Assembly: GCA_043803405.1 (NCBI GenBank)
Contig: JAZDKB010000036.1
Span: 76,963-140,962 of the forward strand
Source: Spirochaetota bacterium
GTDB taxonomy: Bacteria > Spirochaetota > UBA4802 > JAFGDQ01
DNA: 64,000 nucleotides
Direction: 5' to 3'
The notes under the pieces are model-generated. The model had not been told where the DNA came from and made no database searches. It saw nothing but the letters and a program-made list of their open reading frames with translations. Every line of letters starts with the position of its first letter. Position 1 is the stretch's first letter. The position numbers and the translations under genes were made by a program. Below are positions 3,243-18,726 of this stretch, in pieces.

Positions 3243-4715
3243 ATGAACGAATACAAAGAAAATAATGTCCTGATCATAGGCTCCGGCATTGGCGGGCTCT
3301 CGTGCGGTATAATTCTTTTAAAGCTCGGTTATAATGTAACTGTAATCGAAAAAAACAAAGAGCCCGGCGGCATGATGCGCAGCTACAGGCGCCTCGGTAT
3401 TGAATGCCCGGTCGGCGTGCACTACTTGGGATCGCTGGATAACAACCAGGTTCTCCGCCGGATATTCGATTATCTTGGCGTTACATCAAAGATTCAACTG
3501 GAACGAATGGGCGTTAATGCGCCAATAGACAAATACATTTTCGACGACTTTGCATTTGATCTGCCTTCAGGAATAGACGAGTACGAAAATGCTCTGCTGG
3601 AAAAGTTTCCTGATGACAGGAAAGCGATTATAGAAATAATGAGCGGCGTAAGAAAGATCGCGTCCATAATGCAAACCCTCGAGTTTATTTCAGGAAGCAG
3701 CAATGAGTCTTCAATATTTACATCGTTCGAGTTTTTCGATTCAATGGGCGATCTTGTTTCAAAACTAAACTGCTCCAGGAACCTGTGCAGCGTGCTCGAA
3801 GTCCCTTGCACATGGATAGGCCTTTCATTAAAAGAGTGCCCTGTGTTTTATCATTATAATGTTCTTTCGTCTTACCTGTTTTCAGCATGGAGACTTAAAT
3901 GCAGCGGAGCTGATATGGCAAATGCGTTCGCCGGCAGGTTTAAAGAGCTTGGAGGAAAAATAATTCTCGGAGATATGGTCGAGAAGATTCTTACAAAGGA
4001 CCGCGTTGCTGAAGGTATAAGGCTTAAATCCGGACTGGAGATGAAAAGCAGTATTATTATCGCAGCTGTGCATCCGAAAACAATGCTCGCAATTTTACAG
4101 GAGGGATCTGTCAAGCCTGCTTATTCGAAAAGAATAAGCCAGATTGAAGATACGGACGGAATGTTTTCGGTTCAGCTTGGAGTGGACTCGAAAGCCAGCG
4201 AAGAACTGCCTTATAATATCTTCAGGCTGAGAGCGAATAAAGAGGGCTCATTATCAAAAGGAGCTTTTTTTCAGCTTAGGAAATCCGAAAAGCCGGATAT
4301 GAATCTCTTAACTATTATTTCGACCAGTAAATATTCTGAATGGCAAAAATGGGAAACCACTATAAGCGGAAAAAGAGGGAATGACTATCTTGATAAAAAA
4401 GGAATAATAGCTGAAGAATTAATAAACATTGCATCCGGTTGCATCGGCCCGTTTAAGGGGCAGAAAATTCTGGATACTTACTCGCCGCTCACTATACGGG
4501 ACTGGGCAGCAAGCCCGTGCGGTTCGGCGTACGGCGTTCTGCGCTCCAAGGAACAGCTTTTAAAAACAGCGCTTCTTAACAGGACTTCTGTTAAGGGGCT
4601 ATATCTTGCAGGCCAAAGCGTTCTTGCTCCCGGCATTCTTGGAACAGCGCTCGGGTCACTGGTGACTGTAAAAGACATAGTAGGAAGCGAGGCATTTAAA
4701 GCAGTTATTTTATGA
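3243..4715 (+). CDS. FAD-dependent oxidoreductase, phytoene desaturase (CrtI)/retinol saturase-like
   Basis: N-terminal GSGIGG Rossmann motif, 'VGVHYLG', C-terminal 'GSAYG...VKGLYLAGQS...PGILG'. Confidence 0.85.
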   Translation: MNEYKENNVLIIGSGIGGLSCGIILLKLGYNVTVIEKNKEPGGMMRSYRRLGIECPVGVHYLGSLDNNQVLRRIFDYLGVTSKIQLERMGVNAPIDKYIFDDFAFDLPSGIDEYENALLEKFPDDRKAIIEIMSGVRKIASIMQTLEFISGSSNESSIFTSFEFFDSMGDLVSKLNCSRNLCSVLEVPCTWIGLSLKECPVFYHYNVLSSYLFSAWRLKCSGADMANAFAGRFKELGGKIILGDMVEKILTKDRVAEGIRLKSGLEMKSSIIIAAVHPKTMLAILQEGSVKPAYSKRISQIEDTDGMFSVQLGVDSKASEELPYNIFRLRANKEGSLSKGAFFQLRKSEKPDMNLLTIISTSKYSEWQKWETTISGKRGNDYLDKKGIIAEELINIASGCIGPFKGQKILDTYSPLTIRDWAASPCGSAYGVLRSKEQLLKTALLNRTSVKGLYLAGQSVLAPGILGTALGSLVTVKDIVGSEAFKAVIL

Positions 4716-6061
4716 AAATCCTTCTTATATCCGCAAATAAACTAAAAAGCCCGTACCCTGTTTATCCGCTCGGACTAGACTATGTCTCTGGTTCTGTTTC
4801 GCAAAAACATATTGTAAAAATAATAGACCTTAATGAATTTGAGGATATTAATTCAGCCGGCATTACAGTTAAAGACTTTCCTGCTGACATTATAGGAATA
4901 TCCTTAAGGAACGTGGATAATACTGATACAGGTGACCTCAAATATTTTCTTGATCAATACAGGAATCTAATCAGCAGTATAAGAAAGAATTCAAAAGCAT
5001 TGATTGTGCTTGGCGGCAGCGCGTTCACTATTTTTCCTTCGGAGTTTATGCAGGCTCTGGATGCGGACTATGGAATTATCGGAGAGGGTGAACGGTTCGG
5101 CTTTCTGGCAGATGCGCTGGAAGAAAAAAAAGATCCGCTTGAAATTCACGGCGTAATTGCAAAGAATTCGGTAGCGAAGATACCGCAGCCGTGGCCCGAA
5201 TCAATAATAAGAAAATTTAATACGAATAATTCATATATCAATTATTATCTTAACAAGGGCGGGATGCTCAATCTCCAGACAAAGAGAGGCTGCTCTTTTA
5301 AATGCATATACTGCACGTATCCGCATATTGAGGGGAGCAGCCTGAGGCTGTTCCCGCCAGGCGAGATCGCAAAGACTGCTCTGGAACTCGAAAAAGCAGG
5401 TGCTAAATACTTATTCATTACTGACTCTGCGTTTAACTGCAGCTATGCTCACAGCACGGAAGTGGCCAACGCATTTATAAAGGCAGGATTGTCCATTCCA
5501 TGGGGCGCGTTCTTTGCCCCTACGCGCCCGCCTGCCGGTTATTATACCACGCTGGCAAAGGCAGGGCTTACGCACACGGAATTCGGCACTGAATCCATGT
5601 CGGATACCATGCTGCGAAGTTACAGGAAGCCTTTTAATACTGCGGACGTATTTCACGCTCACAAGCTTGCGCTCGATGCAGGGCTCCATGTTGCGCACTA
5701 CTTTTTATTCGGAGGCCCGGGCGAGAACAGCGCGACCCTTGATGAGTCCCTAGCCAACATTGAAAGATTATCAAAGGCAGTGTTCTTCATGTTCTGCGGC
5801 ATGAGGATTTATCCGCATACGGAGCTTTATGAGATCGCAAAAAAAGAAGGACAGTTAACAGAATCAATGTCATTGCTTGAACCGGTATTTTATAAATCAA
5901 ATGCAATCTCTTCTGAAGATATAATAAAAGCAATAGAGGCCAGGGCAGGCGGCAGGCAGAACTGGGTAACAGGTTCGGGCAGCAAAAAAACATCCAGATT
6001 GATGAGCCGCATGTATAAGCACGGGCACACAGGCCCTTTATGGGAGCATTTGATACAATGA
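4712..6061 (+). CDS. B12-binding radical SAM protein, lipid-biosynthesis-associated type
   Basis: N-terminal 'PYPVYPLGLDY...IIGISLRNVDN...LGGSAF' B12-binding domain; 'QTKRGCSFKCIYC' CxxxCxxC; ATGA-coupled to neighbours on both sides. Confidence 0.9.
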   Translation: MKILLISANKLKSPYPVYPLGLDYVSGSVSQKHIVKIIDLNEFEDINSAGITVKDFPADIIGISLRNVDNTDTGDLKYFLDQYRNLISSIRKNSKALIVLGGSAFTIFPSEFMQALDADYGIIGEGERFGFLADALEEKKDPLEIHGVIAKNSVAKIPQPWPESIIRKFNTNNSYINYYLNKGGMLNLQTKRGCSFKCIYCTYPHIEGSSLRLFPPGEIAKTALELEKAGAKYLFITDSAFNCSYAHSTEVANAFIKAGLSIPWGAFFAPTRPPAGYYTTLAKAGLTHTEFGTESMSDTMLRSYRKPFNTADVFHAHKLALDAGLHVAHYFLFGGPGENSATLDESLANIERLSKAVFFMFCGMRIYPHTELYEIAKKEGQLTESMSLLEPVFYKSNAISSEDIIKAIEARAGGRQNWVTGSGSKKTSRLMSRMYKHGHTGPLWEHLIQ

Positions 6062-6855
6062 AGAAGCGGGATAACTTTACGTTTACTCCTTTTCACATTA
6101 CAGGCATAATCGCAATACTACTCTCGGTCGTTCTTTTATTTAAGAGCGCTATGCTTGCGCTTGCTCCCCTGGCTGTTTTCGCTCTGATCTGCGCAGTGGC
6201 GCCGTTCATGACAGGTTTCGGCTTTTTTCTGCCTGTGATAAGCCGCGGGCTAGCCGGCAAAAACGCTGTTGCTCTCACATTTGACGACGGGCCTTCGGAC
6301 GACGTTACACCTGCTGTGCTGAAGCTGCTATCGAAATATTCTGCCAAAGCGACCTTCTTCGTAACAGGCGAAAACGCGTCCCGGCATCCGGAAATAATCA
6401 GAAAAATTCTTAAACAGGGACATTTAATCGGCAATCATTCGTTTAAGCACGATCCGCTGCTTATGCTTCGGACAAGAAAGACGCTCTTTAACGAAATAAG
6501 CGAATGCCAGAATATCTTACAAAAATTTAAAATAACGCCCTGTGCATTCAGACCGCCCGCGGGGATAACGAATCCGAGGCTGCGCGGTGTCCTGGCAGAA
6601 CTCGGTTTATTCTGCGTAAACTGGAGCTGCAGGGGATTCGATGCAGGGAACAGAAACGTAAAAGGCCTTTCGGATAAGATCCTCAAAAAGGTTAAGCCGG
6701 GCGACATTATTCTGCTTCACGACGTCAATCCGGGCAGCAGTGACAGCGAAAAAAAAATACTTGCCGAGTTTGAAAAATTGCTGAAAGGCCTTAGAAATTC
6801 AGGGCTTAATATTGTTCCGCTGCCGGAACTTATCGAAAAAGATGTGATGAAATAG
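6058..6855 (+). CDS. Polysaccharide deacetylase (NodB/CE4) with N-terminal membrane anchor
   Basis: TFDDGP, GNHSFKH, FRPPAG and ILLHD motifs; start at 6058 overlaps the upstream stop (ATGA). Confidence 0.9.
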   Translation: MKKRDNFTFTPFHITGIIAILLSVVLLFKSAMLALAPLAVFALICAVAPFMTGFGFFLPVISRGLAGKNAVALTFDDGPSDDVTPAVLKLLSKYSAKATFFVTGENASRHPEIIRKILKQGHLIGNHSFKHDPLLMLRTRKTLFNEISECQNILQKFKITPCAFRPPAGITNPRLRGVLAELGLFCVNWSCRGFDAGNRNVKGLSDKILKKVKPGDIILLHDVNPGSSDSEKKILAEFEKLLKGLRNSGLNIVPLPELIEKDVMK

Positions 6856-6898
6856 GCTCTTGCATATAAAAGCAGGTATAGACTTGTCTTTTTTTTAC

Positions 6899-6928
6899 TT
6901 GACATTATTTGTTATGCGGAAATATTGT
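6899..6928 (+). promoter_or_regulatory. Putative sigma70 promoter for the dehydratase-ACP-radical SAM unit
   Basis: TTGACA-N18-TATTGT in the 140-bp gap before 6995. Confidence 0.4.
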
Positions 6929-6994
6929 TAAGTTTACTTTTTATTGAACAAATTAAAAAATAATGTCATTTAATAGCCGGTTTAACAGTAAAGT

Positions 6995-7366
6995 ATGAAT
7001 GACTGGTATTCGCTTTCAAATTTGCAATTAGACTCTGGGAAAAATATTTCAGCAAATGCCGTAGTGCCTGCAGATTCGCCATGGTTTTCCGGGCATTTTC
7101 CCGGACAGCCTATATTGCCGGGTATTGCAGAATTGTCGATTGTTTTCGATTTACTAAAAAAAAATCATAATATTACTGGAAATAAGAATAATTTAATTAT
7201 ATTATCTTTAAAGAAGGTCAGGTTTAAAGTTCTCGTTAAACCGGAAGAATTGCTTAATATTAAAGTTATTCAGGTTGAGAATTCAGCAAATACCTATTCA
7301 TTTAAAATAACTGCTGCTAATAAATTAACCTGTTCAGGCACTATCGCAGTAACAGAAACCAGCTAA
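6995..7366 (+). CDS. FabZ/FabA-like (ApeI-type) hotdog dehydratase
   Basis: 'WFSGHFPGQPILPGIAEL' and 'VRFKVLVKP' motifs. Confidence 0.85.
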   Translation: MNDWYSLSNLQLDSGKNISANAVVPADSPWFSGHFPGQPILPGIAELSIVFDLLKKNHNITGNKNNLIILSLKKVRFKVLVKPEELLNIKVIQVENSANTYSFKITAANKLTCSGTIAVTETS

Positions 7367-7411
7367 AACATTTAAATGGCAGACCGATTTGTCCGAAATG
7401 GAGGAAAATTA

Positions 7412-7681
7412 ATGGCAAAAACTATTGAAGCAAAAGATATTATTTTAAAGACAGCAGAAATAATTATCAATGAATTGAAACTGGAAGATATTACAGCCGA
7501 GACATTTGACCCGGATCTTGACCTTGTTGATGAACTCGGAATTGACAGCATGGATCTTACTACTGTTGCGCTTGTGCTTCAGGATGAGTATAATATTACC
7601 ATTGATGAAGACGACTATCCGACTTTAAAGACAGTACGGTTAATATCAGATTATATTCAGAAAGAACTTAAGAGTAAATAA
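7412..7681 (+). CDS. Acyl carrier protein
   Basis: Acidic 89-aa protein with LGIDSMDL phosphopantetheine site; GGAGG RBS before ATG 7412. Confidence 0.92.
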   Translation: MAKTIEAKDIILKTAEIIINELKLEDITAETFDPDLDLVDELGIDSMDLTTVALVLQDEYNITIDEDDYPTLKTVRLISDYIQKELKSK

Positions 7682-7688
7682 TTTATAT

Positions 7689-8807
7689 ATGATTCAAGCA
7701 GGCAAAAAAATAGACGCCCTTGATTTATCAGCCCTGATAAATAAAGGCTGCGCTCTTAAAAAAAACAAATGGAAATTCTCCGATCTTATAGCTGATCCGA
7801 CTATTCGCGATAGATGGGAAAAAGTAAAAAAATATTTCTTTCTCCGCGAAACCACTTACGATATGAGCAACCGCTGTAATCTGAAATGCGACGGATGCTA
7901 TTACTATGAGGGCGACAAGCAGTTCACTGAAGAGAACAGGGACCCGGAAGCATGGCGCGCCCTTATGCGCGAAGAAAAAGCCCGCGGAATAACATACGTG
8001 GTACTTGCGGGCGCTGAGCCGTCGCTTTCGCCTGAGCTTTTAAAAGTGTGCTATGAAGAAATACCGCTCGGGAGCATAGCGACGAACGGCTTTAAGCGCA
8101 TTCCCGAAGAAGTCGATTACATGATACATATATCAGTATGGGGAAATGACAAAACAACGGCAAGGATACGCGGCGCCGAAAACCTGTTAAAAAAGCAAAT
8201 CCAGAATTACAAAGGCGATCCAAGGGCTGTATTTGTTTATACTTTCACAAAAGAGAACATAAACGAAGTCTATGAAGTAATAAATATAATATCGGAAAAT
8301 AACTGCAAAATAACATTTAACATGTTTTCATCTCCTGTAGGCTATATGGGTGGCCTTCGTCATACAAAAGAGTCCCTGCTAAGAACAAGAAATGCAATGA
8401 TAGACCTGTTAAAGAAGTATCCCGATAACGTGCTGTTCTCACCGTACAGCGCTGTTTCGCATACGCACGAAAAATCCCTGCATGATTTATTTAAATGTTC
8501 ATATCCGAGAGTAAATTCGTCCACTGATATAGGACTGGGACGTTCGTTCAGGCAGTACAGGACAAATCTTTCGTGGGACAGAAGCGCGGCGTGCTGCGTG
8601 CCCGACACTGACTGCGACGACTGCAGGCATTACGCGTCCGGGAGCGCTGTAGTAACCGCAAGGCTTTACAGGCACGCGGTAAATCCGGAATCTTTTAAGT
8701 CATGGCTGGATTATGTTGACACTTATCTGTCGATCTGGGTCAGAGGCTACGAAAAAAGCAAAAATCTTTGCGATGTTCCTTACTCACCGCCTGGATTCGA
8801 ATTATAA
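7689..8807 (+). CDS. Radical SAM protein with Cys-rich C-terminus (paralogue 1)
   Basis: CNLKCDGC, AGAEP, C-terminal CCVPDTDCDDC. Confidence 0.9.
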   Translation: MIQAGKKIDALDLSALINKGCALKKNKWKFSDLIADPTIRDRWEKVKKYFFLRETTYDMSNRCNLKCDGCYYYEGDKQFTEENRDPEAWRALMREEKARGITYVVLAGAEPSLSPELLKVCYEEIPLGSIATNGFKRIPEEVDYMIHISVWGNDKTTARIRGAENLLKKQIQNYKGDPRAVFVYTFTKENINEVYEVINIISENNCKITFNMFSSPVGYMGGLRHTKESLLRTRNAMIDLLKKYPDNVLFSPYSAVSHTHEKSLHDLFKCSYPRVNSSTDIGLGRSFRQYRTNLSWDRSAACCVPDTDCDDCRHYASGSAVVTARLYRHAVNPESFKSWLDYVDTYLSIWVRGYEKSKNLCDVPYSPPGFEL

Positions 8808-8842
8808 CACACAATCATTTATTTTTATTTTAGGAAAGGTTA

Positions 8843-9841
8843 ATGGAAACAGTCAGCTCACTATTGGATAAGGAATGGCTGCAAAGATATAAGAATATAT
8901 CGAAACTCAATATACGCAGTTCCATTTATGATGTTACAAACCAGTGCAATCTGCGATGCAAGGGCTGTTTCTTTTTTTCATCTGATGAGCACAAGAGGGG
9001 TCAGGAAGAAAAAGATTTAAATAAATGGGAACAGTTCATTGATAATGAGATAAAACGCGGAGTTAATCTCGCGATTCTGATAGGCGGAGAGCCGACGCTG
9101 TACCTTGACAGGGTCGAAGCATTTTACAAAAGGGTGCCTACATACTGCGCTACAAACGGCATTATTAAAGTTCCGCGCGACCGCTTTCCCGACATGATGA
9201 TCGGGATATCCCTGTGGGGCGATGAAGAAGACGAAAAAGTCCTGAGGGGCAAAAACGCTTTTGCTATCTCCAGGAAAAATTATGAAGGCGATCCTCATAC
9301 ATACTATTTGTATACCATCACTCCAAAACAGGTTGGGCATACAGAGCGCGTAATAAAGAAAATAAAAGATGCCGGATTAAAAGTACATCTGCAGCTTTTA
9401 TCCAATGATGAAGATGTTGACGGATTCCACTGGACTGAGGATCAGCTAAAGGATATATGCATTGAAATGGACGCAATGCTTGACAAATATCCTGAAACAA
9501 TCATTTCCAGCAAGTATTATCATAAAATCATAACAACAGGAATAATGATGGGACGTCCTTTCGGCTGGAAAGAATGCCCTTCAGTGACAGAACCGCTCGA
9601 CAAACGCAATCCCAGACCAAAAAGGCTTATCCATTTCATACGCTGGGCATCGGATCTGAAAACCATGCACAGATGCTGCACGTCCGAAACAAGGGATTGC
9701 ACAACATGCAAAGACGGGGCAGCGCACATGAGCTGGGTAATGGTCAACAAAAGAGAACACATTAAAACAAAAGAAGATCTCCAGAACTGGATTGAAGTTT
9801 ACGAGATGTTCGCGAAATTATACCAGTTCATTCCCTGGTGA
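8843..9841 (+). CDS. Radical SAM protein with Cys-rich C-terminus (paralogue 2)
   Basis: CNLRCKGC, GGEP, C-terminal CCTSETRDCTTC. Confidence 0.9.
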   Translation: METVSSLLDKEWLQRYKNISKLNIRSSIYDVTNQCNLRCKGCFFFSSDEHKRGQEEKDLNKWEQFIDNEIKRGVNLAILIGGEPTLYLDRVEAFYKRVPTYCATNGIIKVPRDRFPDMMIGISLWGDEEDEKVLRGKNAFAISRKNYEGDPHTYYLYTITPKQVGHTERVIKKIKDAGLKVHLQLLSNDEDVDGFHWTEDQLKDICIEMDAMLDKYPETIISSKYYHKIITTGIMMGRPFGWKECPSVTEPLDKRNPRPKRLIHFIRWASDLKTMHRCCTSETRDCTTCKDGAAHMSWVMVNKREHIKTKEDLQNWIEVYEMFAKLYQFIPW

Positions 9842-9849
9842 CCTCATGA

Positions 9850-9995
9850 GACTGTCTCATAATAAAAAATTTGCCACAGAGGCACAAAGGATATTTACTT
9901 AAATAAAGCTGTTTTATTAATATTTTAAACAATTCATTAAAATAATTGTTAAACTCTGTGCCTCAGTGTCTCAGTGGCATTCTTTTGAGACAATC
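9850..9995. repeat. Nested inverted-repeat (REP/MITE-like) intergenic element
   Basis: Outer gactgtctcataa / ttttgagacaatc; inner tgccacagaggcacaaag / ctctgtgcctcagtgtctcagtggca; AT-rich core. Confidence 0.65.
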
Positions 9996-10040
9996 CCCAG
10001 GGAGTGAGGTTCAAAACATACTTTTAGTATTAAATAAAAA

Positions 10041-11300
10041 TTGGCAAAAGAACGAAACAAACAGGCAGTAATACTGGGATACGATACTGTATCGCCTCTC
10101 GGAACAGATTTCCAAATCCAATGGAAGCGCGCTGTTAACGGAGAATGCGGTATAAAGGAACTTACTCGCTTTCCGCTACGTGAAGGTTTCCCGGTTAAAA
10201 TTGCCGGACAGGTTGATGAAATTGACTGCACGCCTTATCCGTTTTTAAGCCCCCGGGAGCTGGCCAACTGGACTTCTCCGATATTCAAATATGCAATGCT
10301 GGTTGTGCACAGAGCGCTTGTAAAAAGCGGAATAGAAATAACACCTGAATTATCCCCGAGAATCGGCATTACCTTCAGCTCTGCTGTAGGCGGCCTTGAT
10401 GCAGTTATTAATGCTGACAGATTATTAAACGCGAAAAACAAACTGCCTCATCCGTTTACAAATCCGAATTCATGCATAAATATGGTAGGCGGAAAAGTAT
10501 CTATATTAACAAAAGCCACAGGTCCGATTGTCTCAACCGTTACCGCGTGCGCTACAGGATGCACATCCATGATTATAGGCTCAATGATGATTGAGCAGGG
10601 AATGGCGGATGCTGTTATATGCGGAGCTGTAGATTTCTCGCTGGTTGAACCTATTGTCGGGGGCTTTGCTTCGATGAACGGCACATACAGCCCCAAAAAA
10701 GGCCAGCCTCATGAAGCGCCGGAAAAGACAAGCCGTCCATTTTCAATTAACAGAAGGGGATTCGTAATAAGCGAAGGAGCGGGGTCGGTAATAATTGCGT
10801 CCAGGGAATTTGCAGAATCGCACGGTCTTAAATATAATATTGCAATATCCGGTTACAGCATGACATCTGATGCGCATCATTTTGTGGCGCCTAATTATGA
10901 AACAGTTAAAAGATGCATTGCCCAGTCTATAGAAAATGCCGGACTTAAACCGCAGGATATTTCTGCCGTAAACGCGCATGCAACATCTACCAAAATAGGC
11001 GATACGGTTGAAGTTAAAGCTTTAACCGATGTTTTTAGCGGCAAAATACCGCCGGCTTCAGGAAACAAATCGCAGATAGGGCATTGCATGGGTGCTTCAA
11101 GCGCAATCGAGGCTATTTTTGCCATGGAAGGTATGATGCGCTATACATTGCTTCCTACAATAAACTATACGCCCGATCCTGAACTTGTTATCGACTGCGT
11201 ACCGGAGGGCGCGAGGCACGCTGAACAGGAATTTGTGCTAAAAAACGCGTTCGGGTTCGGCGGATGCAATTCATGCCTTGTTTTTCAAAGAGAAAATTAA
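10041..11300 (+). CDS. fabF: Beta-ketoacyl-ACP synthase II-like (KAS 1)
   Basis: TACATG, NAHATST, GHCMG and NAFGFGG; Cys-His-His triad intact. Confidence 0.9.
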   Translation: MAKERNKQAVILGYDTVSPLGTDFQIQWKRAVNGECGIKELTRFPLREGFPVKIAGQVDEIDCTPYPFLSPRELANWTSPIFKYAMLVVHRALVKSGIEITPELSPRIGITFSSAVGGLDAVINADRLLNAKNKLPHPFTNPNSCINMVGGKVSILTKATGPIVSTVTACATGCTSMIIGSMMIEQGMADAVICGAVDFSLVEPIVGGFASMNGTYSPKKGQPHEAPEKTSRPFSINRRGFVISEGAGSVIIASREFAESHGLKYNIAISGYSMTSDAHHFVAPNYETVKRCIAQSIENAGLKPQDISAVNAHATSTKIGDTVEVKALTDVFSGKIPPASGNKSQIGHCMGASSAIEAIFAMEGMMRYTLLPTINYTPDPELVIDCVPEGARHAEQEFVLKNAFGFGGCNSCLVFQREN

Positions 11301-11303
11301 TTT

Positions 11304-11502
11304 ACCACAGATGGACACAGATTAAACAAGTTATTAAAAATTTTGATAAAAGGATATTTTTTAGTTTTAAAAAAATTATTTTCCTTTACTTACTTTATTT
11401 CTTTTATTTTTATATCTTCAAATGTGTATAATATTATACTTTTCGAATAATTTTTTTTAAAATTTGAGACATAATTATAATTTTTCTGTGTAAATCTGTG
11501 GT
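11304..11502. repeat. Inverted-repeat-bounded AT-rich intergenic element
   Basis: accacagatggacacaga (11304-11321) vs tctgtgtaaatctgtggt (11485-11502), 16/18 complementary. Confidence 0.65.
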
Positions 11503-11511
11503 TAAACAATT

Positions 11512-12777
11512 ATGAAGGCACCAAAGAACAGACGCGTATTCGTTATCGGATACGAAGTCATAACTCCGCTCGGAAAAACTTTTAAAGAGACCTGGAACAG
11601 GGCTGTAAAATCGGAAGCCGGTTTCAGGAAGCTTACCAAGTTTAATGTGCAGTCGGATTGCAACGTGGTCGGGGAAATACCGGATTGGAATCCTGCAGAA
11701 TTTAATTTTGTAGATGAAAAAGAAATATATAACTGGAACGCTGCTTTTATTATTTTAACAATGGCAGTATGCAAGGCAGCGCTCGAAAATTCCGGGCTTG
11801 AGATTAATAAGATAACGAGTCCGAGAACCGCCTGTTTAATATCATCCTGTATTAATGGACATGATGCATACCGTATTGCAATGGACAGCCTTCTTAACAA
11901 AGGGCCATTAAAAGTGAGTCCTTATTTGCTTCCGAACATGTGCGGAAATCTGCCGGGTGGAAAATCAAGCATGCTTCTGGGCTTTACGGGTCCCATATTT
12001 TCACCGCAGGGCGCATGCGCTTCGGGCAACCATTCAATCGGACTCGGAGCCCGTATGATAAGGGATGGAGACTGCGACTTTGCAATAGTGGGCGGAGCTG
12101 ACACTCCTATCCTTCCGGAAATAATTCACGGATTCGACAACATGAATGCCACCTTAAAGGTGCGGCCAAAAGACCGCGCTTACGATGATCCGGCTCAGGC
12201 CTCCAGGCCGTTCAGCGGTGACAGAAAGGGCTTTATACTGTCCGAGGGCGCAGGGGCGCTTGTACTTGCTGCCGAGGAGATGCTCACGACTTATGGTTTA
12301 AAACCGAAAGCTGAAGTGCTCGGCATAGGCTGGACATCGGACGCGTATCATTTTACAACGCCGAATAAAGACAGCATTGTCCGCTGCATAAACGAAGCAA
12401 TTGATGACGCGGCTTTAAAACCTGAGGACATCCAGTATGTAAATGCCCACGGCACGTCAACGCAGACGGGAGACAGAAGCGAGGTCGAATGCCTTCAAAG
12501 AGTGTTCGGTAAACACCTTGCTCACATGCCGGTATCCTCAAACAAATCCCAGCTTGGCCATACGCTTGCGGGTTGCGCTGCAATAGAAGCTGCGCTTACA
12601 ATAGAAGGAATGCAAAAAGGAATAATCCTGCCGACCATTAATCATATACCTGACCCTAAGATAGAGAACATTGACGTGGTTCCCAACACACCGCGCAAAC
12701 AAAATTTTGAGCTTGCGCTTTCCAATGCATTCGGCTTTGGCGGCACCAACTGCTGCGTCATATTCAGGGGAGTTTAG
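11512..12777 (+). CDS. fabF: Beta-ketoacyl-ACP synthase II-like (KAS 2)
   Basis: GACASG, NAHGTST, GHTL and NAFGFGG; triad intact. Confidence 0.9.
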   Translation: MKAPKNRRVFVIGYEVITPLGKTFKETWNRAVKSEAGFRKLTKFNVQSDCNVVGEIPDWNPAEFNFVDEKEIYNWNAAFIILTMAVCKAALENSGLEINKITSPRTACLISSCINGHDAYRIAMDSLLNKGPLKVSPYLLPNMCGNLPGGKSSMLLGFTGPIFSPQGACASGNHSIGLGARMIRDGDCDFAIVGGADTPILPEIIHGFDNMNATLKVRPKDRAYDDPAQASRPFSGDRKGFILSEGAGALVLAAEEMLTTYGLKPKAEVLGIGWTSDAYHFTTPNKDSIVRCINEAIDDAALKPEDIQYVNAHGTSTQTGDRSEVECLQRVFGKHLAHMPVSSNKSQLGHTLAGCAAIEAALTIEGMQKGIILPTINHIPDPKIENIDVVPNTPRKQNFELALSNAFGFGGTNCCVIFRGV

Positions 12778-12778
12778 A

Positions 12779-13267
12779 ATGAAGCCGAAGCCTTTTATTG
12801 CAAAGATATATAATAATGACGAACGTTATGTGAAAGAAGAGTCAACCGGCCTCATCTGGCACAGATGCAGCCACCGCACGCTGTACGCTGATACTGACCG
12901 GTCGTCCGTGGTTTATCATTCCAATTATCTGCGCTATTTCGAGCAGGGACGCGCTACCCTTATGCGCGATAACGTGTACCCGTATTATGAAATAGAAGAA
13001 AGCGGGTACGTATATCCGATCATTGAAACTGGGATCAAATACTTCAGGCCTCTTCGTTATGATGACCTGATGTGGATTCATACAAGGCCGGATATGATAG
13101 AACGCGTTAAGCTGCAGTTCGAATATTTAATAACTCATACCGAAACCGGCGAAATCGTCTGCACCGGTTTCACCCGTCATTGCGCTTCCAATAAATCCGG
13201 CAAACCTGTCGCAATAGATCCCAAAACGGTTGAGCTATGGAAAAACTTCCCAATAATCCGGAAATGA
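12779..13267 (+). CDS. Acyl-CoA/acyl-ACP thioesterase (YbgC/4HBT hotdog family)
   Basis: 'YADTD..VVYHSNYLRYFEQGR' motif; likely start is ATG 12779, just after the KAS stop. Confidence 0.88.
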   Translation: MKPKPFIAKIYNNDERYVKEESTGLIWHRCSHRTLYADTDRSSVVYHSNYLRYFEQGRATLMRDNVYPYYEIEESGYVYPIIETGIKYFRPLRYDDLMWIHTRPDMIERVKLQFEYLITHTETGEIVCTGFTRHCASNKSGKPVAIDPKTVELWKNFPIIRK

Positions 13268-14748
13268 CCGGGAAACAAAGTATTCAAATCGAAATACCAA
13301 TCTATCCGTTCATGAAAGATCACAGATTTTCCGGCAGAATTGTTATCCCTGCTGTGGAATTATGCCAGGTACTTGCTCTGGAAATAAAAAAGCATATACC
13401 GGATATAAATAATCAAATAATATATAATGCTTCATTCGATAAATTTATTGATATCAATGGTGATGAGAAAATAACTGCACTTAACGAAATTAAATCTTAT
13501 GAGGACGGCACGTTTGTATCAAAACTATTAACAAAGACAAAAACAAGATCCGGCATAATCCGCACCAATGAACATGTATCAATGGACTTCAGAAAGGACG
13601 CTCTGCCATTTAAAGAATTAACTTACGATGTCGCTTCTGCGCTTGACGGCTTGTGTTTGCGGGTGCAGCCACAGGAAATCTACAGCGAGCTTGTGCCGTT
13701 CGGCCCGGCTTATCATAATGTCACAGGCGACCTGTATGTGGCGGACAGCGGAGCTGCTGCCTGCATAGTTGCACCGGCGGAGATGAGCCCCGGCCCGCTC
13801 GGGTCGCCTTTTGTTTTCGATGCTGCTTTGCACGCTGCCAGCGTATGGGCGCAGCGTTATCATAATACAACTGCTTTTCCGGTCGCGTTTTCCAAGCGGA
13901 TCATACTAAAGCCGGCAGAGGCAGGCAAAAAATATTTTACAAGGATTATTCCGGTACAGTCCGAAGCAAAAATATTTAAATTTGATATCTGGATTTACGA
14001 TTACGAAGGCGTTCTTCGCGAGGCGGGGTTCGGCGTCTCATTCAGGGATGTAACCGGAGGCACATTACAGACTCCGGAATGGATAACTAAAAATAAAAAT
14101 AATTTATTGTATGATATTTTATCGAAATGTGATGCGTTTTCGGTTGTTGAGCTGGATCAGATACCGGAGTTCGCCTCCAAAGCTCTCTCAATCGATGAAC
14201 TTCGCAGGCTGGAACCCATGAGAGAGAAACGCAGAAAAAGTTACACAGGCGCAAGACTGGCATGTAAATTTCTTTCCAGGAAACTCTCCAAAGAAAGCTT
14301 TGATCTGCCCGCAGATAAAATCACAACTATCATAAATAACATTTACCCTGCATGCCCGCTTCCGGACGGCAGCATGCCATACAAATGTACGGTTTCTCAC
14401 GACAGCCGTTTCGCTGTTGCAGCAGCATCACGAAAGCGCATAGGCATTGATGTTGAAGAGATATCTGAGCGTGTTATAGAGCTAAGAAAATATTATATGA
14501 GCGAGGAAGAACAAAATCTTGTTGATTCTTCAGGTCTGGAAAAAAAGGCAGCATGCCTCAGGATCTGGTCAATTAAGGAAGCAGTAACAAAAGCTCTCGA
14601 CATAGATCTAACCGGATCATGGAAAAGCGTGCAGGTAATGGATATCGGTGAAAATATCACCAAATTTTTAATTAATAATATTGAAAATAATGCATACCAC
14701 TGTACTATAGATAATCATATCTTTACGCTGGTTCAGTTCGGGGAATAA
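13264..14748 (+). CDS. Fusion: polyketide-synthase-type dehydratase plus Sfp-type 4'-phosphopantetheinyl transferase
   Basis: N-terminal 'DHRFSGRIVIPA' (HxxxGxxxxP), 'FGPAY' and 'FDAALH'; C-terminal 'VSHD...IGIDVE...WSIKEAVTKA'; ATGA overlap with the thioesterase stop. Confidence 0.85.
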   Translation: MTGKQSIQIEIPIYPFMKDHRFSGRIVIPAVELCQVLALEIKKHIPDINNQIIYNASFDKFIDINGDEKITALNEIKSYEDGTFVSKLLTKTKTRSGIIRTNEHVSMDFRKDALPFKELTYDVASALDGLCLRVQPQEIYSELVPFGPAYHNVTGDLYVADSGAAACIVAPAEMSPGPLGSPFVFDAALHAASVWAQRYHNTTAFPVAFSKRIILKPAEAGKKYFTRIIPVQSEAKIFKFDIWIYDYEGVLREAGFGVSFRDVTGGTLQTPEWITKNKNNLLYDILSKCDAFSVVELDQIPEFASKALSIDELRRLEPMREKRRKSYTGARLACKFLSRKLSKESFDLPADKITTIINNIYPACPLPDGSMPYKCTVSHDSRFAVAAASRKRIGIDVEEISERVIELRKYYMSEEEQNLVDSSGLEKKAACLRIWSIKEAVTKALDIDLTGSWKSVQVMDIGENITKFLINNIENNAYHCTIDNHIFTLVQFGE

Positions 14749-15338
14749 TGTTGCAGGTTATCATTCTATTTATAGCTGCGTATCTGGCTGGTTCTGTTAA
14801 TATAGCTATTCTGCTTTTTAAAATTATCGGCAAGGAAGATCCGCGCAGCAAATTCAGCGGCAATGCTGGAACAGTAAACATTTACCGCCAGGCAGGGCTT
14901 TTCTGGGCAGCGGTTGTATTTATACTGGATTTCAGCAAAGCAATCGGGTTATCCGCGCTTTCTTTGCATCTGTTGGAACCGGAGTTCGCGCCGCTGATCT
15001 GCTTAGGGTTGCTTCTGGGAAACAGGTTCCCGTGCTTTCATGGTTTCCGCGGAGGAAAAGGAGTAGCGAACTTTCTCGGATTTACCGCAGTTATTACGCC
15101 GATATGGGCAGGGGCAGCTGCAGCTGTGTGGGTAATTGTTTACCTGATTGTGAAGACGCCTTTTATTGCATCGCTTTCAATGACGATTCTGTTGGCTATC
15201 GGGATTATAATAGCAAATCAATATAATCAGTTCTCTGCGGTAATCAGTATCCTGATAGTATTATTTATTATTTATAATCATAAAATAAATATTACTGAAT
15301 TTAAAAAGAATTTTAAAAATCAGTCCAAATCTCCATAA
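14748..15338 (+). CDS. plsY: Glycerol-3-phosphate acyltransferase PlsY family
   Basis: 'YLAGSVN...DPR...SGNAGTVN', 'FRGGKGVA' and 'HKINI'; multiple TM helices; TAATG overlap. Confidence 0.85.
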   Translation: MLQVIILFIAAYLAGSVNIAILLFKIIGKEDPRSKFSGNAGTVNIYRQAGLFWAAVVFILDFSKAIGLSALSLHLLEPEFAPLICLGLLLGNRFPCFHGFRGGKGVANFLGFTAVITPIWAGAAAAVWVIVYLIVKTPFIASLSMTILLAIGIIIANQYNQFSAVISILIVLFIIYNHKINITEFKKNFKNQSKSP

Positions 15339-15342
15339 CCGC

Positions 15343-15375
15343 AATAAGTCGGGATAATAATTATCCTGATTTATT
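15343..15375 (+). terminator. Stem-loop after plsY (terminator or RNA stabiliser)
   Basis: aataagtcgggataat / attatcctgatttatt, 16-bp stem with two G-U pairs. Confidence 0.45.
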
Positions 15376-15425
15376 CGCTAAGATAAGAGGTTTTGGAATG
15401 CAATAATGTTAAAGAAGAATGAGTT

Positions 15426-16817
15426 ATGAATAACAAATTATTTATTATAATATTGATTTGTATCTTATCATTAATAACCAGCTTTGCGTATTTAGAAGAA
15501 AACACAAATGCTGAAAAACTGCCGAAAAACGCAAAATACCTGCAGGAACCGGTGTTTAACAGTAAAATATATTTTTATGAATCAGACAACGAATTCAAAA
15601 TAAATGTTATACTGGTACACGGCGTAGGCGATGACGCTTCGGATATATGGAAAGGCCTGGTCCCGGTGCTTGAAAAACAGTTTCATGTGATTTATTTTGA
15701 TCTTCCGGGATTCGGAAGATCGGGAAAAGAAGATGCCCTTTATTCGCCGCAAAACTACGCAGCATTAATTAAATGGATCCGTGACCGGAACCCGGATAAA
15801 CCGATGTACTTAATCGGGCACTCAATGGGCGGGGCTATTTCGCTTTGTTATGCAGGCACATATCCACAAAGCTTACAGCGCCTCATACTTGTTGACGCAG
15901 CAGGCATTTTGCACAGAACGGCTTTTACAAAAAACCTCGCGGAAGCTAAAGTATCGGAACTGAGCAGAAATAAAATTTTCAGCGATGAACTGGATATATT
16001 AAGCCGCTTTATTGAGACCAGCTTATTAATGAACGAAATGCAGCAGATACTTCCAAAGGATTTATCGCCTGTTCTTGAAAATTCTTTTTTAAGGCGAAAG
16101 CTTCTCAGCAGTCCGCAAAAAATAGCATCCGTATCTATGATTTACAGTGATTTCAGCAAGCAGATTGAAAATATTAATGTTCCGTGTTTTATTATATGGG
16201 GCGGTAAAGATCCGATAGCGCCGCTAAGAACAGGCAAAATGCTTGCCTCGAATATTCAGAACTCAAGTCTTTTTATAATGCCCGGGCTTGGCCATAACCC
16301 GATGATCGAACGTCCTGCCGAATTTAATAATCTTATCTTAAAAAGTCTAACTGCCGAATCCGTGCCAAATCAGGAAAAAAAATCACAATCTTTAAATATT
16401 AAATCCATCACACTCGACAACAGAGAAAACGTGATCATTGAGGGTGATTATAAAGAAATTAAGATAAATAATTGCCGGAATATTTTAATAAAAAATACAA
16501 ATGCCAGTGCAGTTAAAATAAAAAATTCGTGGGTTGATATGGAAAATATTTCTGTAAATTCCTCCGAAGTCGGCATGATTCTGGAAGAATCAATCATTGA
16601 AATTACCGGCGGTGTTATTTCCGGGGATACTGGGATTTCGGTTTCCGACAGCAAAGTCGATATCGCAGGAGTAAAAATAGAAGGGAAAAAGGCTGCAGTT
16701 TCATCAAGTTCAAAAAGCAATTCCACTATTGTTTTTTCAGTATGCAGAATCAGAAGCCCTTACAACAATAAAAATATTCATGATATTATTGAGATCACAA
16801 AGGAAAACTCATTATAA
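15426..16817 (+). CDS. Secreted alpha/beta hydrolase with C-terminal beta-helix-like extension
   Basis: Signal-like N-terminus; HG, DLPGFG, GHSMG, GGKDP and GHNP; Ile/Ser/Gly-rich periodic C-terminus. Confidence 0.8.
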   Translation: MNNKLFIIILICILSLITSFAYLEENTNAEKLPKNAKYLQEPVFNSKIYFYESDNEFKINVILVHGVGDDASDIWKGLVPVLEKQFHVIYFDLPGFGRSGKEDALYSPQNYAALIKWIRDRNPDKPMYLIGHSMGGAISLCYAGTYPQSLQRLILVDAAGILHRTAFTKNLAEAKVSELSRNKIFSDELDILSRFIETSLLMNEMQQILPKDLSPVLENSFLRRKLLSSPQKIASVSMIYSDFSKQIENINVPCFIIWGGKDPIAPLRTGKMLASNIQNSSLFIMPGLGHNPMIERPAEFNNLILKSLTAESVPNQEKKSQSLNIKSITLDNRENVIIEGDYKEIKINNCRNILIKNTNASAVKIKNSWVDMENISVNSSEVGMILEESIIEITGGVISGDTGISVSDSKVDIAGVKIEGKKAAVSSSSKSNSTIVFSVCRIRSPYNNKNIHDIIEITKENSL

Positions 16818-17055: not shown

Positions 17056-18711
17056 ATGCTTTTAGGTATTGACGTAGGCGGAACACATACCGATGCGGTT
17101 CTTGTCGACAGCTCCGGCATTGTGTCATCCTTTAAGACAAAGACAGAGCACGATAATCTTCTCAGATCAATTACCACTGCGCTTGAAAAAGTATCAGCCG
17201 GTATCGACAGAAAAAAGATAACCAACATAAATCTCAGTACTACCCTGTCCACCAATGCGATAGTTGAACAGAAGCTCGAAAAGACTGGAGTATTCATATC
17301 CTCGGGACCTGGACTAAATCCTGAAAATATAATCATGGGGGATTTTACCTTTATAATACCAGGCTCTATTGATCACCGCGGAAGAGTTGTTCAGGAACTG
17401 GACAATGAAAAGCTACAGAAAGGATATGAAGCATGCCGCAAGCAGGATGTAAAAGTGTTTGCATCAGTGACGAAATTTTCAACGCGAAATGATTCACAGG
17501 AAAAAGAAATATCCGGGATGATTAAACCCGTATCGGACTTTACAACAGAAGGGCACAGTCTTTCAAGCCAGCTAAGCTTTCCAAGAAGAGTAGCGACTGC
17601 ATATTACAACTCAGCAGTCTGGAGGATATACAATAATTTTGCAGACGCGATACTGAAGAGTGTGAAAAATCTGGGGATTGATGCCCCGGTCAACATCCTC
17701 AAGGCTGACGGGGGGACCCTTCCGGTATCCATGTCCAGGGAATTCCCCGTTGAATCCATTCTGTCAGGTCCGGCAGCGAGCATAATGGGAATAATAGCGC
17801 TTTGCAATATTACGGAAGATTCGGTCATCCTCGACATCGGCGGAACAACAACCGATATCGCCGTATTTGTCTTCGGCGCCCCGCTTATAGAGAGAGACGG
17901 GATCAGCCTCGGCGGATACCCCACGCTGATAAGATCGCTTAAAAACAGATCCATCGGGATAGGCGGCGACTCTGCCATTACTGTGAAGGACGGAAAAGTC
18001 TGCGTAGGACCACACAGGTATGGGCCATGCATGGCTGACGGCGGCAAAAGGCCTTCTTTAATCGATGCCATGAATGTCCGTGGAATTACAGAATATGGAG
18101 ACAGCAAAAAATCCAGTGAAGGAATAAATAAACTCTCGGAAACCGCAGGACTTCCGGTAAAAAAGCTGGCGGAAGAAGCCGTAAATTATGCTGTTCAAAG
18201 AATCAAAGATGAAATACGGAGCATGCTCGACGAGATCAACCAGAAACCTGTGTATACGATTCACGAAATGATAGAAGGGATAACCGTGAAGCCGAGCAGG
18301 ACATATATCATCGGAGGGCCGGCGATGGCTCTTGCAAAGCTTCTCAATCACGGTACAGAGGTCACAGTGCCGGAAAATTACGAAGTTGCAAATGCCGTCG
18401 GCGCGGCTCTCGCGCGGCCGACATTTGAAGCAGAGCTTTTTGCGGATACAGGATCCGGAAAAATGATAATACCCAACATCGGTATTGAAAAAAATGTGGA
18501 CATAAAATACAGCACAAAGGATGCGAAGGAAGACGCAATACGCTATCTTATAGAATACCTGAAAAAGAAAGGACTCCGTACAGAAAGCAAAGACATCGAT
18601 ATAATAGAATCATCATGTTTCAGGATGATCAGTGATTTTCATTCTTCGGGCAATGACATCAGAATAAAATGCCAGATAAAGCCCGAAGTCGCTATGAAGT
18701 TACATGCATAA
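17056..18711 (+). CDS. Hydantoinase/oxoprolinase A-subunit family protein
   Basis: GIDVGGTHTDA, SILSGPAAS, DIGGTTTD and ANAVGAA. Confidence 0.9.
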   Translation: MLLGIDVGGTHTDAVLVDSSGIVSSFKTKTEHDNLLRSITTALEKVSAGIDRKKITNINLSTTLSTNAIVEQKLEKTGVFISSGPGLNPENIIMGDFTFIIPGSIDHRGRVVQELDNEKLQKGYEACRKQDVKVFASVTKFSTRNDSQEKEISGMIKPVSDFTTEGHSLSSQLSFPRRVATAYYNSAVWRIYNNFADAILKSVKNLGIDAPVNILKADGGTLPVSMSREFPVESILSGPAASIMGIIALCNITEDSVILDIGGTTTDIAVFVFGAPLIERDGISLGGYPTLIRSLKNRSIGIGGDSAITVKDGKVCVGPHRYGPCMADGGKRPSLIDAMNVRGITEYGDSKKSSEGINKLSETAGLPVKKLAEEAVNYAVQRIKDEIRSMLDEINQKPVYTIHEMIEGITVKPSRTYIIGGPAMALAKLLNHGTEVTVPENYEVANAVGAALARPTFEAELFADTGSGKMIIPNIGIEKNVDIKYSTKDAKEDAIRYLIEYLKKKGLRTESKDIDIIESSCFRMISDFHSSGNDIRIKCQIKPEVAMKLHA

Positions 18712-18726
18712 GCAGAGGTAGCAGAA

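Follow-up and report, generated by a model that had tools for sequence, protein, structure and literature searches.

The stretch of DNA analyzed here (the window) is 64,000 nucleotides long and belongs to the genome of a Spirochaetota bacterium (G000), where it covers positions 76963-140962 of contig C36 (G000:C36:76963-140962). It carries an uncharacterized conserved unit, named cassette B, composed of an acyl carrier protein (ACP), two radical S-adenosylmethionine (SAM) enzymes (rSAM1 and rSAM2), two ketosynthases (KS1 and KS2), a thioesterase (TE) and a dehydratase (DH) which may be fused to a phosphopantetheinyl transferase (PPTase), in the order ACP-rSAM1-rSAM2-KS1-KS2-TE-DH(-PPTase). The gene cluster is real, widespread and common to many anaerobes. 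On the basis of gene content in related genomes, the cassette appears to be an add-on to a second layer of genes, named backbone A. Sequence and co-occurrence establish which parts are present, that their catalytic motifs are intact and that they are inherited together, and from this we infer the steps of a pathway. The best model, which as a whole has about an even chance of being right, is a dedicated type II fatty acid synthase/polyketide synthase (FAS/PKS) pathway by which an anaerobe, probably a spirochaete, makes a special glycerolipid of its envelope. A sequence-only reading of the window had proposed a dedicated lipid pathway with radical SAM tailoring. The conserved FAS/PKS and radical SAM set of that proposal is supported, while the ladderane link is weak, and the role of the CrtI-like protein and direct loading by PlsY need revision.

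Conservation and composition of the cassette

The sequence-only reading had described 13 co-oriented genes with four coupled overlaps and had given each gene a domain label. All 13 open reading frames (ORFs) were indeed found on the + strand in the span 3243-16817, and the labels match the Pfam and NCBIfam calls. On the sequence, overlaps of 4 bases are present between the CrtI-like and B12-binding radical SAM genes (ATGA at 4712), between the latter and the NodB-type gene (ATGA at 6058) and between TE and DH (ATGA at 13264). The DH-PPTase and PlsY genes overlap by 1 base (TAATG at 14746-14750, earlier placed near 14748). Remaining intergenic gaps in the run are 1-211 bases, and the guanine-cytosine content of the 13-gene cluster is similar to the remainder of the window. 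The 12 upstream genes stand as cluster parts, the CrtI-like gene being optional. The last gene, encoding an alpha/beta hydrolase (15426-16817, +; Abhydrolase_1), had also been counted in the cluster but is a marginal member at best, present in 1 of 80 loci, plus a 31% match beside PlsY in the relative G006.

To collect related loci, GTDB species genomes were scanned with rSAM1, which gave at least 594 pattern matches, at least 562 of them encoding a relative. The best 80 of these 562 loci were used; being the closest matches they overstate the conservation across the whole family, and locus counts take only loci with enough flank. A second sample of 301 genomes was an even draw from the phylum of Desulfogranum japonicum (Desulfobacterota), and a third had 41 genomes related to G000, which itself has a completeness of 94%. 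The cassette order recurs with the ACP gene directly 5' of rSAM1 in 74/76 loci, rSAM2 in 71/71, KS1 in 67/69, KS2 in 51/57, TE in 49/55 and DH in 45/52, and the cassette is conserved at 60-90% identity. The counts for other genes are 61/74 for the FabZ-like gene, 44/63 for the B12 radical SAM, 40/63 for NodB, 21/45 for PlsY, 20/52 for the ketosynthase-chain length factor (KS-CLF) fusion and 8/53 for CrtI. The synteny on which the earlier reading had staked its case is therefore present in other genomes. The source records are Desulfobacterota-type, Spirochaetota, Myxococcales and SAR324. At E<=1e-100, rSAM2 was found in 25 of the 301 genomes, and the rSAM pair is carried by 6 of the 41 genomes around G000. 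Desulfogranum japonicum, Desulfosarcina widdelii and Desulfonema limicola are cultured carriers. Both the closest homologues and a tree of rSAM2 put the window locus among Spirochaetota records, which suggests a spirochaete host. The 'Myxococcota' labels of this tree are mostly records titled Deltaproteobacteria and no transfer argument was built on them.

The rSAM1 gene (7689-8807, +) was assigned by motifs and fold matches to an unnamed, twitch/SPASM-like radical SAM family, and rSAM2 (8843-9841, +) is its paralogue with 26% identity. In rSAM1 the CxxxCxxC motif and a C-terminal C..CC..CxxC set are conserved in 74/74 homologues. In rSAM2 CxxxCxxC is found in 67/67 and the C-terminal cysteine set in 66/67, with a mean column identity of 82%. 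The family is small, with 67 representatives at E<=1e-30 in a profile search. Against NCBIfam the best scores of rSAM1 and rSAM2 were 35 and 30 bits, all far under the family cut-offs. The PDB sequence search with rSAM1 retrieved SkfB and PqqE only, and the ESM Atlas gave unnamed radical SAM clusters only. The structural model of rSAM1 (mean predicted local distance difference test, pLDDT, 81.7) matched the fold of BlsE (Z 17.3, rmsd 3.4, 261 aligned), SkfB (16.9) and anSME (16.4), and the rSAM2 model (pLDDT 76.0) matched SkfB (Z 13.1) and BlsE (12.6). The cysteine regions of both models have low pLDDT. The motifs and models point to a radical SAM core followed by a C-terminal auxiliary-cluster domain in both proteins, which would bind iron-sulfur clusters. 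A predicted complex of rSAM1 with rSAM2 scored 0.00 in two runs in which the controls were not folded, and it was not used as evidence.

The genomic context of distant rSAM relatives was taken from four plasmid records. These relatives share 30-33% identity and adjoin genes of thioester chemistry, supporting a thioester-tethered substrate for the radical SAM enzymes. The order on a Methylomagnum plasmid is ACP-TauD-rSAM-nonribosomal peptide synthetase (NRPS), and on Burkholderia and Alteromonas plasmids the relative has PaaI thioesterase or MaoC hot-dog neighbours. A small cassette of distant rSAM, PaaA-like protein and MaoC/PaaI hot-dog protein was seen at L103:19189-21544, L104:14267-16664 and L106:14965-17661, its hosts being Alteromonas, Burkholderia plasmids and apparently a Tistrella plasmid. 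The one in Burkholderia adjoins an A-domain/ACP/halogenase cluster and an acyl-homoserine lactone synthase. One 724-aa protein (P0134) joins TubC_N, a type I thioesterase and the rSAM family, but it is a single member on one contig and possibly an assembly artefact.

The dedicated ACP (PF00550) is encoded at 7412-7681 (+), with a longer start possible at 7376; the PDB sequence search with both ACPs gave generic ACPs only. KS1 (10041-11300, +) scored 328 bits with the fabF model, under the cut-off of 493.75. KS2 (11512-12777, +), assigned by NCBIfam and by comparison with KS1, is 40% identical to it. Both possess an intact Cys-His-His triad, the catalytic motifs being matched in 59, 53 and 53 of 61 homologues for KS1 and in 50, 47 and 52 of 52 for KS2. 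In a FastTree phylogeny of 48 rows with no outgroup, KS1 and KS2 grouped as sisters, separate from FabF, KS-CLF and the remaining backbone ketosynthases. A search of plasmids with KS2 gave ordinary FabFs at 36-38% only, among the 12 of 53 matches listed. The thioesterase (12779-13267, +) is a YbgC/FadM-type hot-dog protein over the TIGR00051 cut-off, and its Asp/His motif is kept in 43/43 homologues. The PKS-type double hot-dog dehydratase fused to a PPTase (13264-14748, +; PS-DH, ACPS) has its His motif in 41/47 and its Asp motif in 47/47 homologues, with the fused length in 17/47. The cluster families yielded no enoyl reductase, suggesting that the chain probably keeps double bonds. A thiolase search added nothing.

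The spacers between rSAM2 and KS1 (9872-9975) and between KS1 and KS2 (11295-11511) have imperfect inverted arms of similar sequence, like repetitive extragenic palindromic elements. The arms at 11295-11321 and 11485-11511 are 27 nt each and 81% complementary, and a 12-base core of the first element occurs 9 times in G000. In several related loci the KS1-KS2 spacer is expanded by multi-kb insertions. A search for RNA runs over 7376-12777 listed none. The promoter scan (53 vs 32 +/- 6) and the terminator scan (17 vs 14 +/- 4) were uninformative.

Backbone A and the proposed route to glycerol-3-phosphate

The two layers were distinguished by clustering the ORFs of the 80 loci together with family labelling. 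Backbone A is composed of a KS-CLF fusion of ~730 aa, ACPs, FabG, a second hot-dog protein, LolA, MMPL-methyltransferase, LpxL- and PlsC-type acyltransferases, a thioesterase, an AMP ligase, B12 radical SAMs, and CrtI-like and NodB proteins. Its family labels suggest an aryl-polyene/flexirubin-like set. At E<=1e-90 a TIGR04072 (B12 radical SAM) match was found in 83/301 genomes (63 over cut-off), comprising 22 of the 25 cassette genomes and 61 without cassette. G031 shows no cassette at this position: plsY directly adjoins the FabZ-like gene, so the cassette looks like an insertion.

The window is a fragment of a ~30-gene system split across five contigs of G000. The region C18:142924-162736 contains a PaaK-like ligase, a thioesterase, a FakA-FakB fusion, GT2, MMPL, an LpxL-type protein, a B12 radical SAM, LolA, FabG and a hot-dog protein. 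A KS-CLF fusion and an ACP are situated at C10:95246-97658, a PlsC-type protein, a ketosynthase and an ACP at C27:96151-98443, and a further B12 radical SAM at C35:28877-30409. The pieces on C10, C18, C27, C35 and C36 are assigned to one pathway because they are near-contiguous in G006 (L123-L124), where most backbone parts and the cassette are together on one 47-kb contig. The sequence-only reading had noticed that FabG is missing from the window cluster. This is correct, and a matching FabG, 64% identical to the FabG beside related clusters, sits on C18. The best PDB match of the C10 KS-CLF fusion is 9s5h_B, which we take to be anammox FabF2, an assignment that could not be confirmed.

Among the backbone genes of the window, the CrtI/CrtD-like FAD oxidoreductase (3243-4715, +; Pfam NAD_binding_8 and Amino_oxidase) had its best NCBIfam match in CrtD at 92.9 bits, far under the cut-off of 549.7, and the PDB sequence search recovered FAD-binding stretches only. 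The gene is present in 6 of the 22 loci holding both KS-CLF and B12 enzyme and missing from 16/22, and as an optional gene it is unlikely to be the maker of an unsaturated substrate. Anammox CrtI homologues were without CrtI-like activity in E. coli (PMC4790861, Javidpour et al. 2016). Both points make it more likely that unsaturation comes from KS/ketoreductase/DH cycling without enoyl reduction.

The B12-binding radical SAM (4712-6061, +) scored 392.1 bits with TIGR04072 (positions 1-443), against a cut-off of 360, so the family assignment made earlier holds. Scores in the 301 genomes are bimodal (565-672 vs <430) and the window protein, which is 37% identical to a top-scoring 672-bit member, falls in the lower group, pointing to a sister subgroup of the high-scoring members. 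The family was presumably defined from the ladderane context; the model name rSAM_ladder_B12 alone was confirmed. In Smithella/Syntrophaceae-type loci a FabA-like gene replaces the KS-CLF fusion 5' of the B12 gene (12 loci, including L040, L042, L046, L055, L076, L081, L082 and L089). The NodB-type polysaccharide deacetylase (6058-6855, +; PF01522) has an N-terminal hydrophobic segment, keeps three motifs in 32/32 homologues and is fused to a methyltransferase in 10 loci.

The single hot-dog dehydratase (6995-7366, +) is ApeI/FabZ-like, over the PF07977 cut-off and under that of the ApeI-like model. It provides a His half-site, with the His motif in 43/44 homologues, and the acidic catalytic position is not conserved (40 commonest variants). 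The second hot-dog protein at C18:162317-162736 shows the opposite pattern, with the Glu motif present and the His motif absent in 14/14 homologues. ApeI and ApeP form a dehydratase heterodimer with a shared active site. By their complementary motifs, the two G000 proteins are likely partners in such a heterodimer, and the window would thus depend on C18 genes.

PlsY-type acyl-phosphate:glycerol-3-phosphate acyltransferase is encoded at 14748-15338 (+; PF02660, 118 bits). Its TIGR00023 score of 101.3 bits is under the 137.2 cut-off, placing it by sequence in a divergent subfamily. The three motifs for glycerol-3-phosphate binding and catalysis are kept in comparison with 5xj5 and in 23, 22 and 23 of 23 homologues. 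It is a single copy and the only PlsY found in G000. Any PlsY was found in 8 of the 41 relatives, and in 7 of those 8 it is of the cluster type. The sequence-only reading had the ACP-bound chain loaded onto glycerol-3-phosphate by the cluster's own PlsY. That PlsY belongs with the cluster is upheld by this joint distribution and by its intact motifs. Direct loading from acyl-ACP does not hold, since PlsY uses acyl-phosphate, supplied by PlsX or FakA/FakB (PMC9136124), and PlsX was not found in G000, nor did it reach cut-off in any of the 41 relatives (0/41). Loading would hence need the thioesterase plus a FakA-FakB kinase.

A candidate for this kinase is the fused DAK2-DegV (FakA-FakB) protein at C18:145894-147621, with Dak2 and DegV domains. 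It keeps the FakA nucleotide motifs and a Cys/His/His set like that of S. aureus (Cys240/His282/His284; PMC9136124), does not reach the FakA and YloV cut-offs, and is a predicted fatty acid kinase. The fusion is present in the same 8/41 relatives as PlsY; in one of them, G040, it is a distant version with an internal stop, beside a different PlsY. In the larger sample the fusion was found in 27/301 genomes, which include 25/25 rSAM2-positive genomes and 2/276 others. PlsY is part of the backbone, not of the radical SAM cassette alone, because the fetched loci of G031 and G311 carry it without cassette. At G110:C50:15743-16240 a cluster-type PlsY lies inside a 632-aa open frame and may be fused to another domain.

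Three other genes of the window probably belong to the system. FabD malonyl transacylase (28779-29612, stop codon excluded, -) scored 349 bits with TIGR00128 (cut-off 260.9), is the only stand-alone copy found in G000 and has homologues within clusters L109 and L107. The AMP-dependent acyl ligase (27382-28743, stop codon excluded, -; PF00501), with an ApeH-like role, has homologues at 37-63% identity in 8 cluster loci, its own match being under every family cut-off. The aromatic amino-acid ammonia-lyase (32657-34234, stop codon excluded, -; PF00221) is a possible aryl-starter enzyme with a FlxA-like role. It has homologues within backbone clusters L107 (40%) and L113 (34%), and its membership is uncertain.

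Two 415-aa 7TM-PAS-LuxR one-component regulators, 37% identical, are encoded at 1583-2830 (-) and 62672-63916 (-). The one at 1583-2830 points away from the cluster and is a possible regulator of it; C48 and C12 carry two further paralogues. Downstream, 17056-20043 (+) holds a hydantoinase/oxoprolinase-like gene, then a histone-deacetylase-family gene whose tail is rich in cysteine; these were not seen among the 80 cluster loci. Elsewhere in the genome, G000:C4:115064-124459 (L101:7065-16460) encodes a type I synthase of 3132 aa that combines two KS regions, an acyltransferase domain, five ACPs, a ketoreductase and a DH, and a PPTase-like gene comes after it. Giant KS-bearing ORFs of this type recur in many FabF-less relatives and may be the primary fatty-acid synthase. 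In many genomes of the order, G007 and G010-G013 among them, neither PlsX nor PlsY was found and KS-type matches did not rise above thiolase level, which suggests that these organisms scavenge fatty acids.

Proposed pathway and rival explanations

In the proposed pathway the fused PPTase would prime the cassette ACP and FabD would load malonyl units. KS1 and KS2, both active, would extend the chain with the C18 FabG and the PKS-type dehydratase, the double bonds being probably retained. The twin radical SAM enzymes would abstract hydrogen from the ACP-bound chain and the auxiliary iron-sulfur cluster would take the second electron, the outcome being oxygen-independent desaturation or ring closure, one step per enzyme. 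Within the best model this outcome, suggested by the auxiliary cluster and general radical SAM chemistry, is about evenly balanced. The TIGR04072 enzyme would most likely add a methyl group, as methylation is the usual reaction of cobalamin-dependent radical SAM enzymes. The thioesterase would free the acid, the C18 FakA-FakB would convert it to acyl-phosphate and PlsY would transfer it onto glycerol-3-phosphate, bypassing the missing PlsX. The backbone (KS-CLF, ApeI/ApeP-like pair, PlsC-, LpxL- and GT2-type transferases, NodB) would supply the sugar head and the second chain, with export of the lipid left to MMPL and LolA-type proteins. We tentatively propose that the twin radical SAM enzymes could be the first oxygen-independent radical desaturases/cyclases for ACP-bound chains, with a private thioesterase-Fak-PlsY exit, making a new ring-bearing or cross-linked membrane lipid; the species concerned, sulfate reducers, syntrophs and spirochaetes, would number in the hundreds.

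Several points weigh against this pathway. Substrate, reaction and product are predictions from gene content. The fold matches of rSAM1 and rSAM2 tie among enzymes of unrelated reactions and give no hint of the reaction. The sampled genomes are kin and incomplete, hence the co-occurrence counts overstate independence. Three genomes (G031, G275 and G311) have the FakA-FakB fusion in backbones that lack the cassette, two of them (G031 and G311) together with PlsY, so the fusion can serve other chains; the second His of its Cys/His/His set is not invariant in 6 aligned sequences. Cluster-type PlsY was found at E<=1e-25 in 17/301 genomes, covering 15/25 cassette genomes, and PlsY is in reach in just 21 of 45 loci. 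The other 10 cassette genomes may use a housekeeping PlsY. In the aryl polyene (APE) lipid, moreover, one glycerol position bears an ordinary C16 or C14 chain (bioRxiv 10.1101/2020.12.19.423268).

A different wiring of the same system is a serious though minority possibility. FakA-FakB and PlsY would here do no more than turn ordinary fatty acids into a plain lyso-phosphatidate anchor, and the modified unit would be a starter or second chain, attached through the AMP ligase and PlsC-/LpxL-type transferases to give an aryl-polyene-like pigment lipid. The cassette-free backbones of G031 and G311, the apparent insertion of the cassette between adjacent FabZ-like and plsY genes in G031, the 10/25 cassette genomes without cluster-type PlsY, the AMP ligase and ammonia-lyase and the plain saturated chain of APE lipids all agree with such an anchor. 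However, TIGR04072 backbones without cassette have the Fak fusion in 1/61 genomes (G275), and the cassette has its own thioesterase, whose released acid needs re-activation. Release by this thioesterase could also yield a free diffusible acid or a small polyketide, such as a signal or antibiotic, outside the membrane, as in the NRPS-type small-molecule clusters where distant radical SAM relatives are found. The near-obligate Fak fusion link (25/25), the lipid transferases and the Lol/MMPL export genes make such a free product very improbable. It is quite unlikely, too, that the cassette acts as a substitute housekeeping fatty-acid synthase, supplying the bulk membrane lipids of lineages that lack the canonical genes. 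In G000 no PlsX, FabH or second FabA/FabZ and no FabF or FabK over cut-off was found, and the window holds its best FabF-like matches and only PlsY. But 35/41 relatives are without the cassette and FabF is over cut-off in just 3/41, so these gaps are lineage-wide. G000 moreover has the 3132-aa multi-ACP type I synthase and 8 PlsB/PlsC-type matches, PlsX is present in 3/5 tested cassette genomes, and an enoyl reductase was not found in the cluster.

It is quite unlikely that non-anammox bacteria use this cluster to produce cyclobutane lipids of the ladderane kind, or direct precursors of these, and the ladderane link is weak. The sequence-only reading had seen the ladderane-locus combination in the window. 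The TIGR04072 match over cut-off agrees with it, as does the 9s5h_B match of the C10 KS-CLF fusion if that structure is FabF2, and the overlapping CrtI-like (3243-4715) and B12 radical SAM (4712-6061) genes do resemble the adjacent pair of anammox cluster I (kuste3607/3608). The KS pair and the dehydratase, however, do not fit. One site of the anammox cluster I KS pair (FabF2/FabFmut) is non-functional (bioRxiv 10.64898/2026.05.19.726425), whereas KS1 and KS2 both keep Cys-His-His; the KS-CLF fusion on C10 is separate from this pair. KS2 also scores canonical FabFs far above 9s5h_B. The window dehydratase matched amxFabZ (8AYB) at E 1.7e-5, weaker than 3esi and canonical FabZs, and does not conserve the acidic residue, while amxFabZ members share 65-84% identity (PMC10139942). 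By label, no PlsY, thioesterase or PKS-type dehydratase is among the 28 candidates that Table 2 of PMC4790861 gives for non-canonical clusters, and the CrtI-like gene is optional. In D. psychrophila, which shares the older cluster type, ladderanes were not detected according to PMC2649909. 'Ladderane' clusters are known in non-anammox phyla, with a function regarded as unknown (PMC9902471).

Returning to the preferred pathway, a conserved radical SAM pair beside its own ACP is a direct candidate for acyl-chain radical chemistry. Some carriers (D. widdelii, D. limicola, D. japonicum) are cultured, unlike anammox bacteria, and genomes with the backbone and without the cassette offer a natural comparison. 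The near-obligate Fak link points chemists to a saponifiable glycerolipid. If the radical desaturase/cyclase proposal is true, it would provide a culturable model for the proposed ladderane-type chemistry and a new lipid biomarker of anoxic sediments.

Relation to known lipid clusters

The synteny of FAS II genes between Kuenenia and Desulfotalea was described in 2009 (Rattray et al., PMC2649909). The Kuenenia kuste3335-3352/Desulfotalea psychrophila island resembles the present system in its deacetylase, PaaK/F390-like ligase, glycosyltransferase, membrane exporter and methyltransferase, and in FabG, several FabF including a non-canonical one, a phytoene-desaturase-like protein and radical SAMs. 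By family label this accessory set is all present in G000, and it is mostly contiguous in G006. The gene lists of the island that were compared, by label, name no PlsY, thioesterase, PKS-type dehydratase or Fak. Anammox cluster I has amxACP, amxFabZ, FabF2/FabFmut, PDH and a B12 radical SAM, and several relatives of the window locus have ACP, KS-CLF, then desaturase-like and B12 genes. The window differs in its intact KS pair forming an own clade, its non-amxFabZ dehydratase, and its extra twin non-B12 radical SAMs, TE, DH and PlsY. Treating ACP-KS/CLF-CrtI-B12 as the orthologue of anammox cluster I was dropped, as the kuste3335-3352 island fits the accessory genes better. A paper on AmxMT1 (PMC9821293) and a review of radical SAM enzymes in lipid biosynthesis (PMC13459092) are also available.

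A precedent for the predicted product class comes from the ape clusters of E. coli CFT073 and Xenorhabdus doucetiae, whose product is a sugar-phosphate glycerolipid, a glycerophospholipid in which polyenes serve as acyl chains (bioRxiv 10.1101/2020.12.19.423268). Counterparts of KS (ApeO/R), CLF (ApeC, fused), ACPs and ApeI/P are present in G000, together with ApeQ, ApeM, ApeL, ApeK, ApeD, ApeJ-like halves and an ApeH-like ligase. The ape core set (KS, CLF, ACP, two dehydratases, ketoreductase and MMPL) is found at genome level, not inside the window: KS-CLF and ACP on C10, KS and ACP on C27, the ApeI-like protein in the window with the hot-dog protein on C18, and FabG and MMPL on C18. The gene roles given for ape clusters (PMC8253772; bioRxiv 10.1101/2020.12.19.423268) name no radical SAM, twin-KS cassette, PKS-type dehydratase, PlsY or Fak. 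The host of the window is an anaerobe, and an aryl starter is possible. One-to-one orthology with an APE cluster, which would have refuted the sequence-only reading, does not hold, as the radical SAMs, PlsY and PKS-type DH of the window have no counterpart among these ape gene roles and KS1 and KS2 are outside the backbone KS clades. The flexirubin flx/dar clusters of Bacteroidota share polysaccharide deacetylase, acyltransferase, LolA, glycosyltransferase, exporter, several KS, ammonia-lyase and coenzyme A ligase, and the cluster descriptions in PMC3992019 include no radical SAM cassette. A search of G000 for PF08541, the FabH-type C-terminal domain, gave no match, DarA and DarB not being searched directly. 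This argues against a DarB-type enzyme, the DarB fold having such a domain.

BlsE, SkfB, anSME, SuiB and, further off, GDGT-MAS resemble the rSAM pair in fold and in their conserved C-terminal auxiliary-cluster cysteines. They differ in having 13-20% identity and in acting on nucleosides, peptides, proteins and isoprenoid lipids, not acyl-ACP. Firmicutes FakA/FakB feeding PlsY (PMC9136124) has the same kinase motifs, DegV domain and PlsY link as the C18 Fak, which is however a single chain without the FakA C-terminal domain and is tied to a biosynthetic cluster in Gram-negative anaerobes, not to scavenging. A search of full-text literature, with subscription journals and supplements outside its scope, gave no paper on the cassette among those listed and 0 papers for TIGR04072, in line with the earlier failure to match the cluster to a characterized product. 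The cluster type of backbone A has been known since 2009 from Kuenenia and Desulfotalea, while the twin radical SAM, twin KS cassette inserted in an aryl-polyene/Desulfotalea-type FAS II lipid cluster and the probable thioesterase-Fak-PlsY exit appear to be new.

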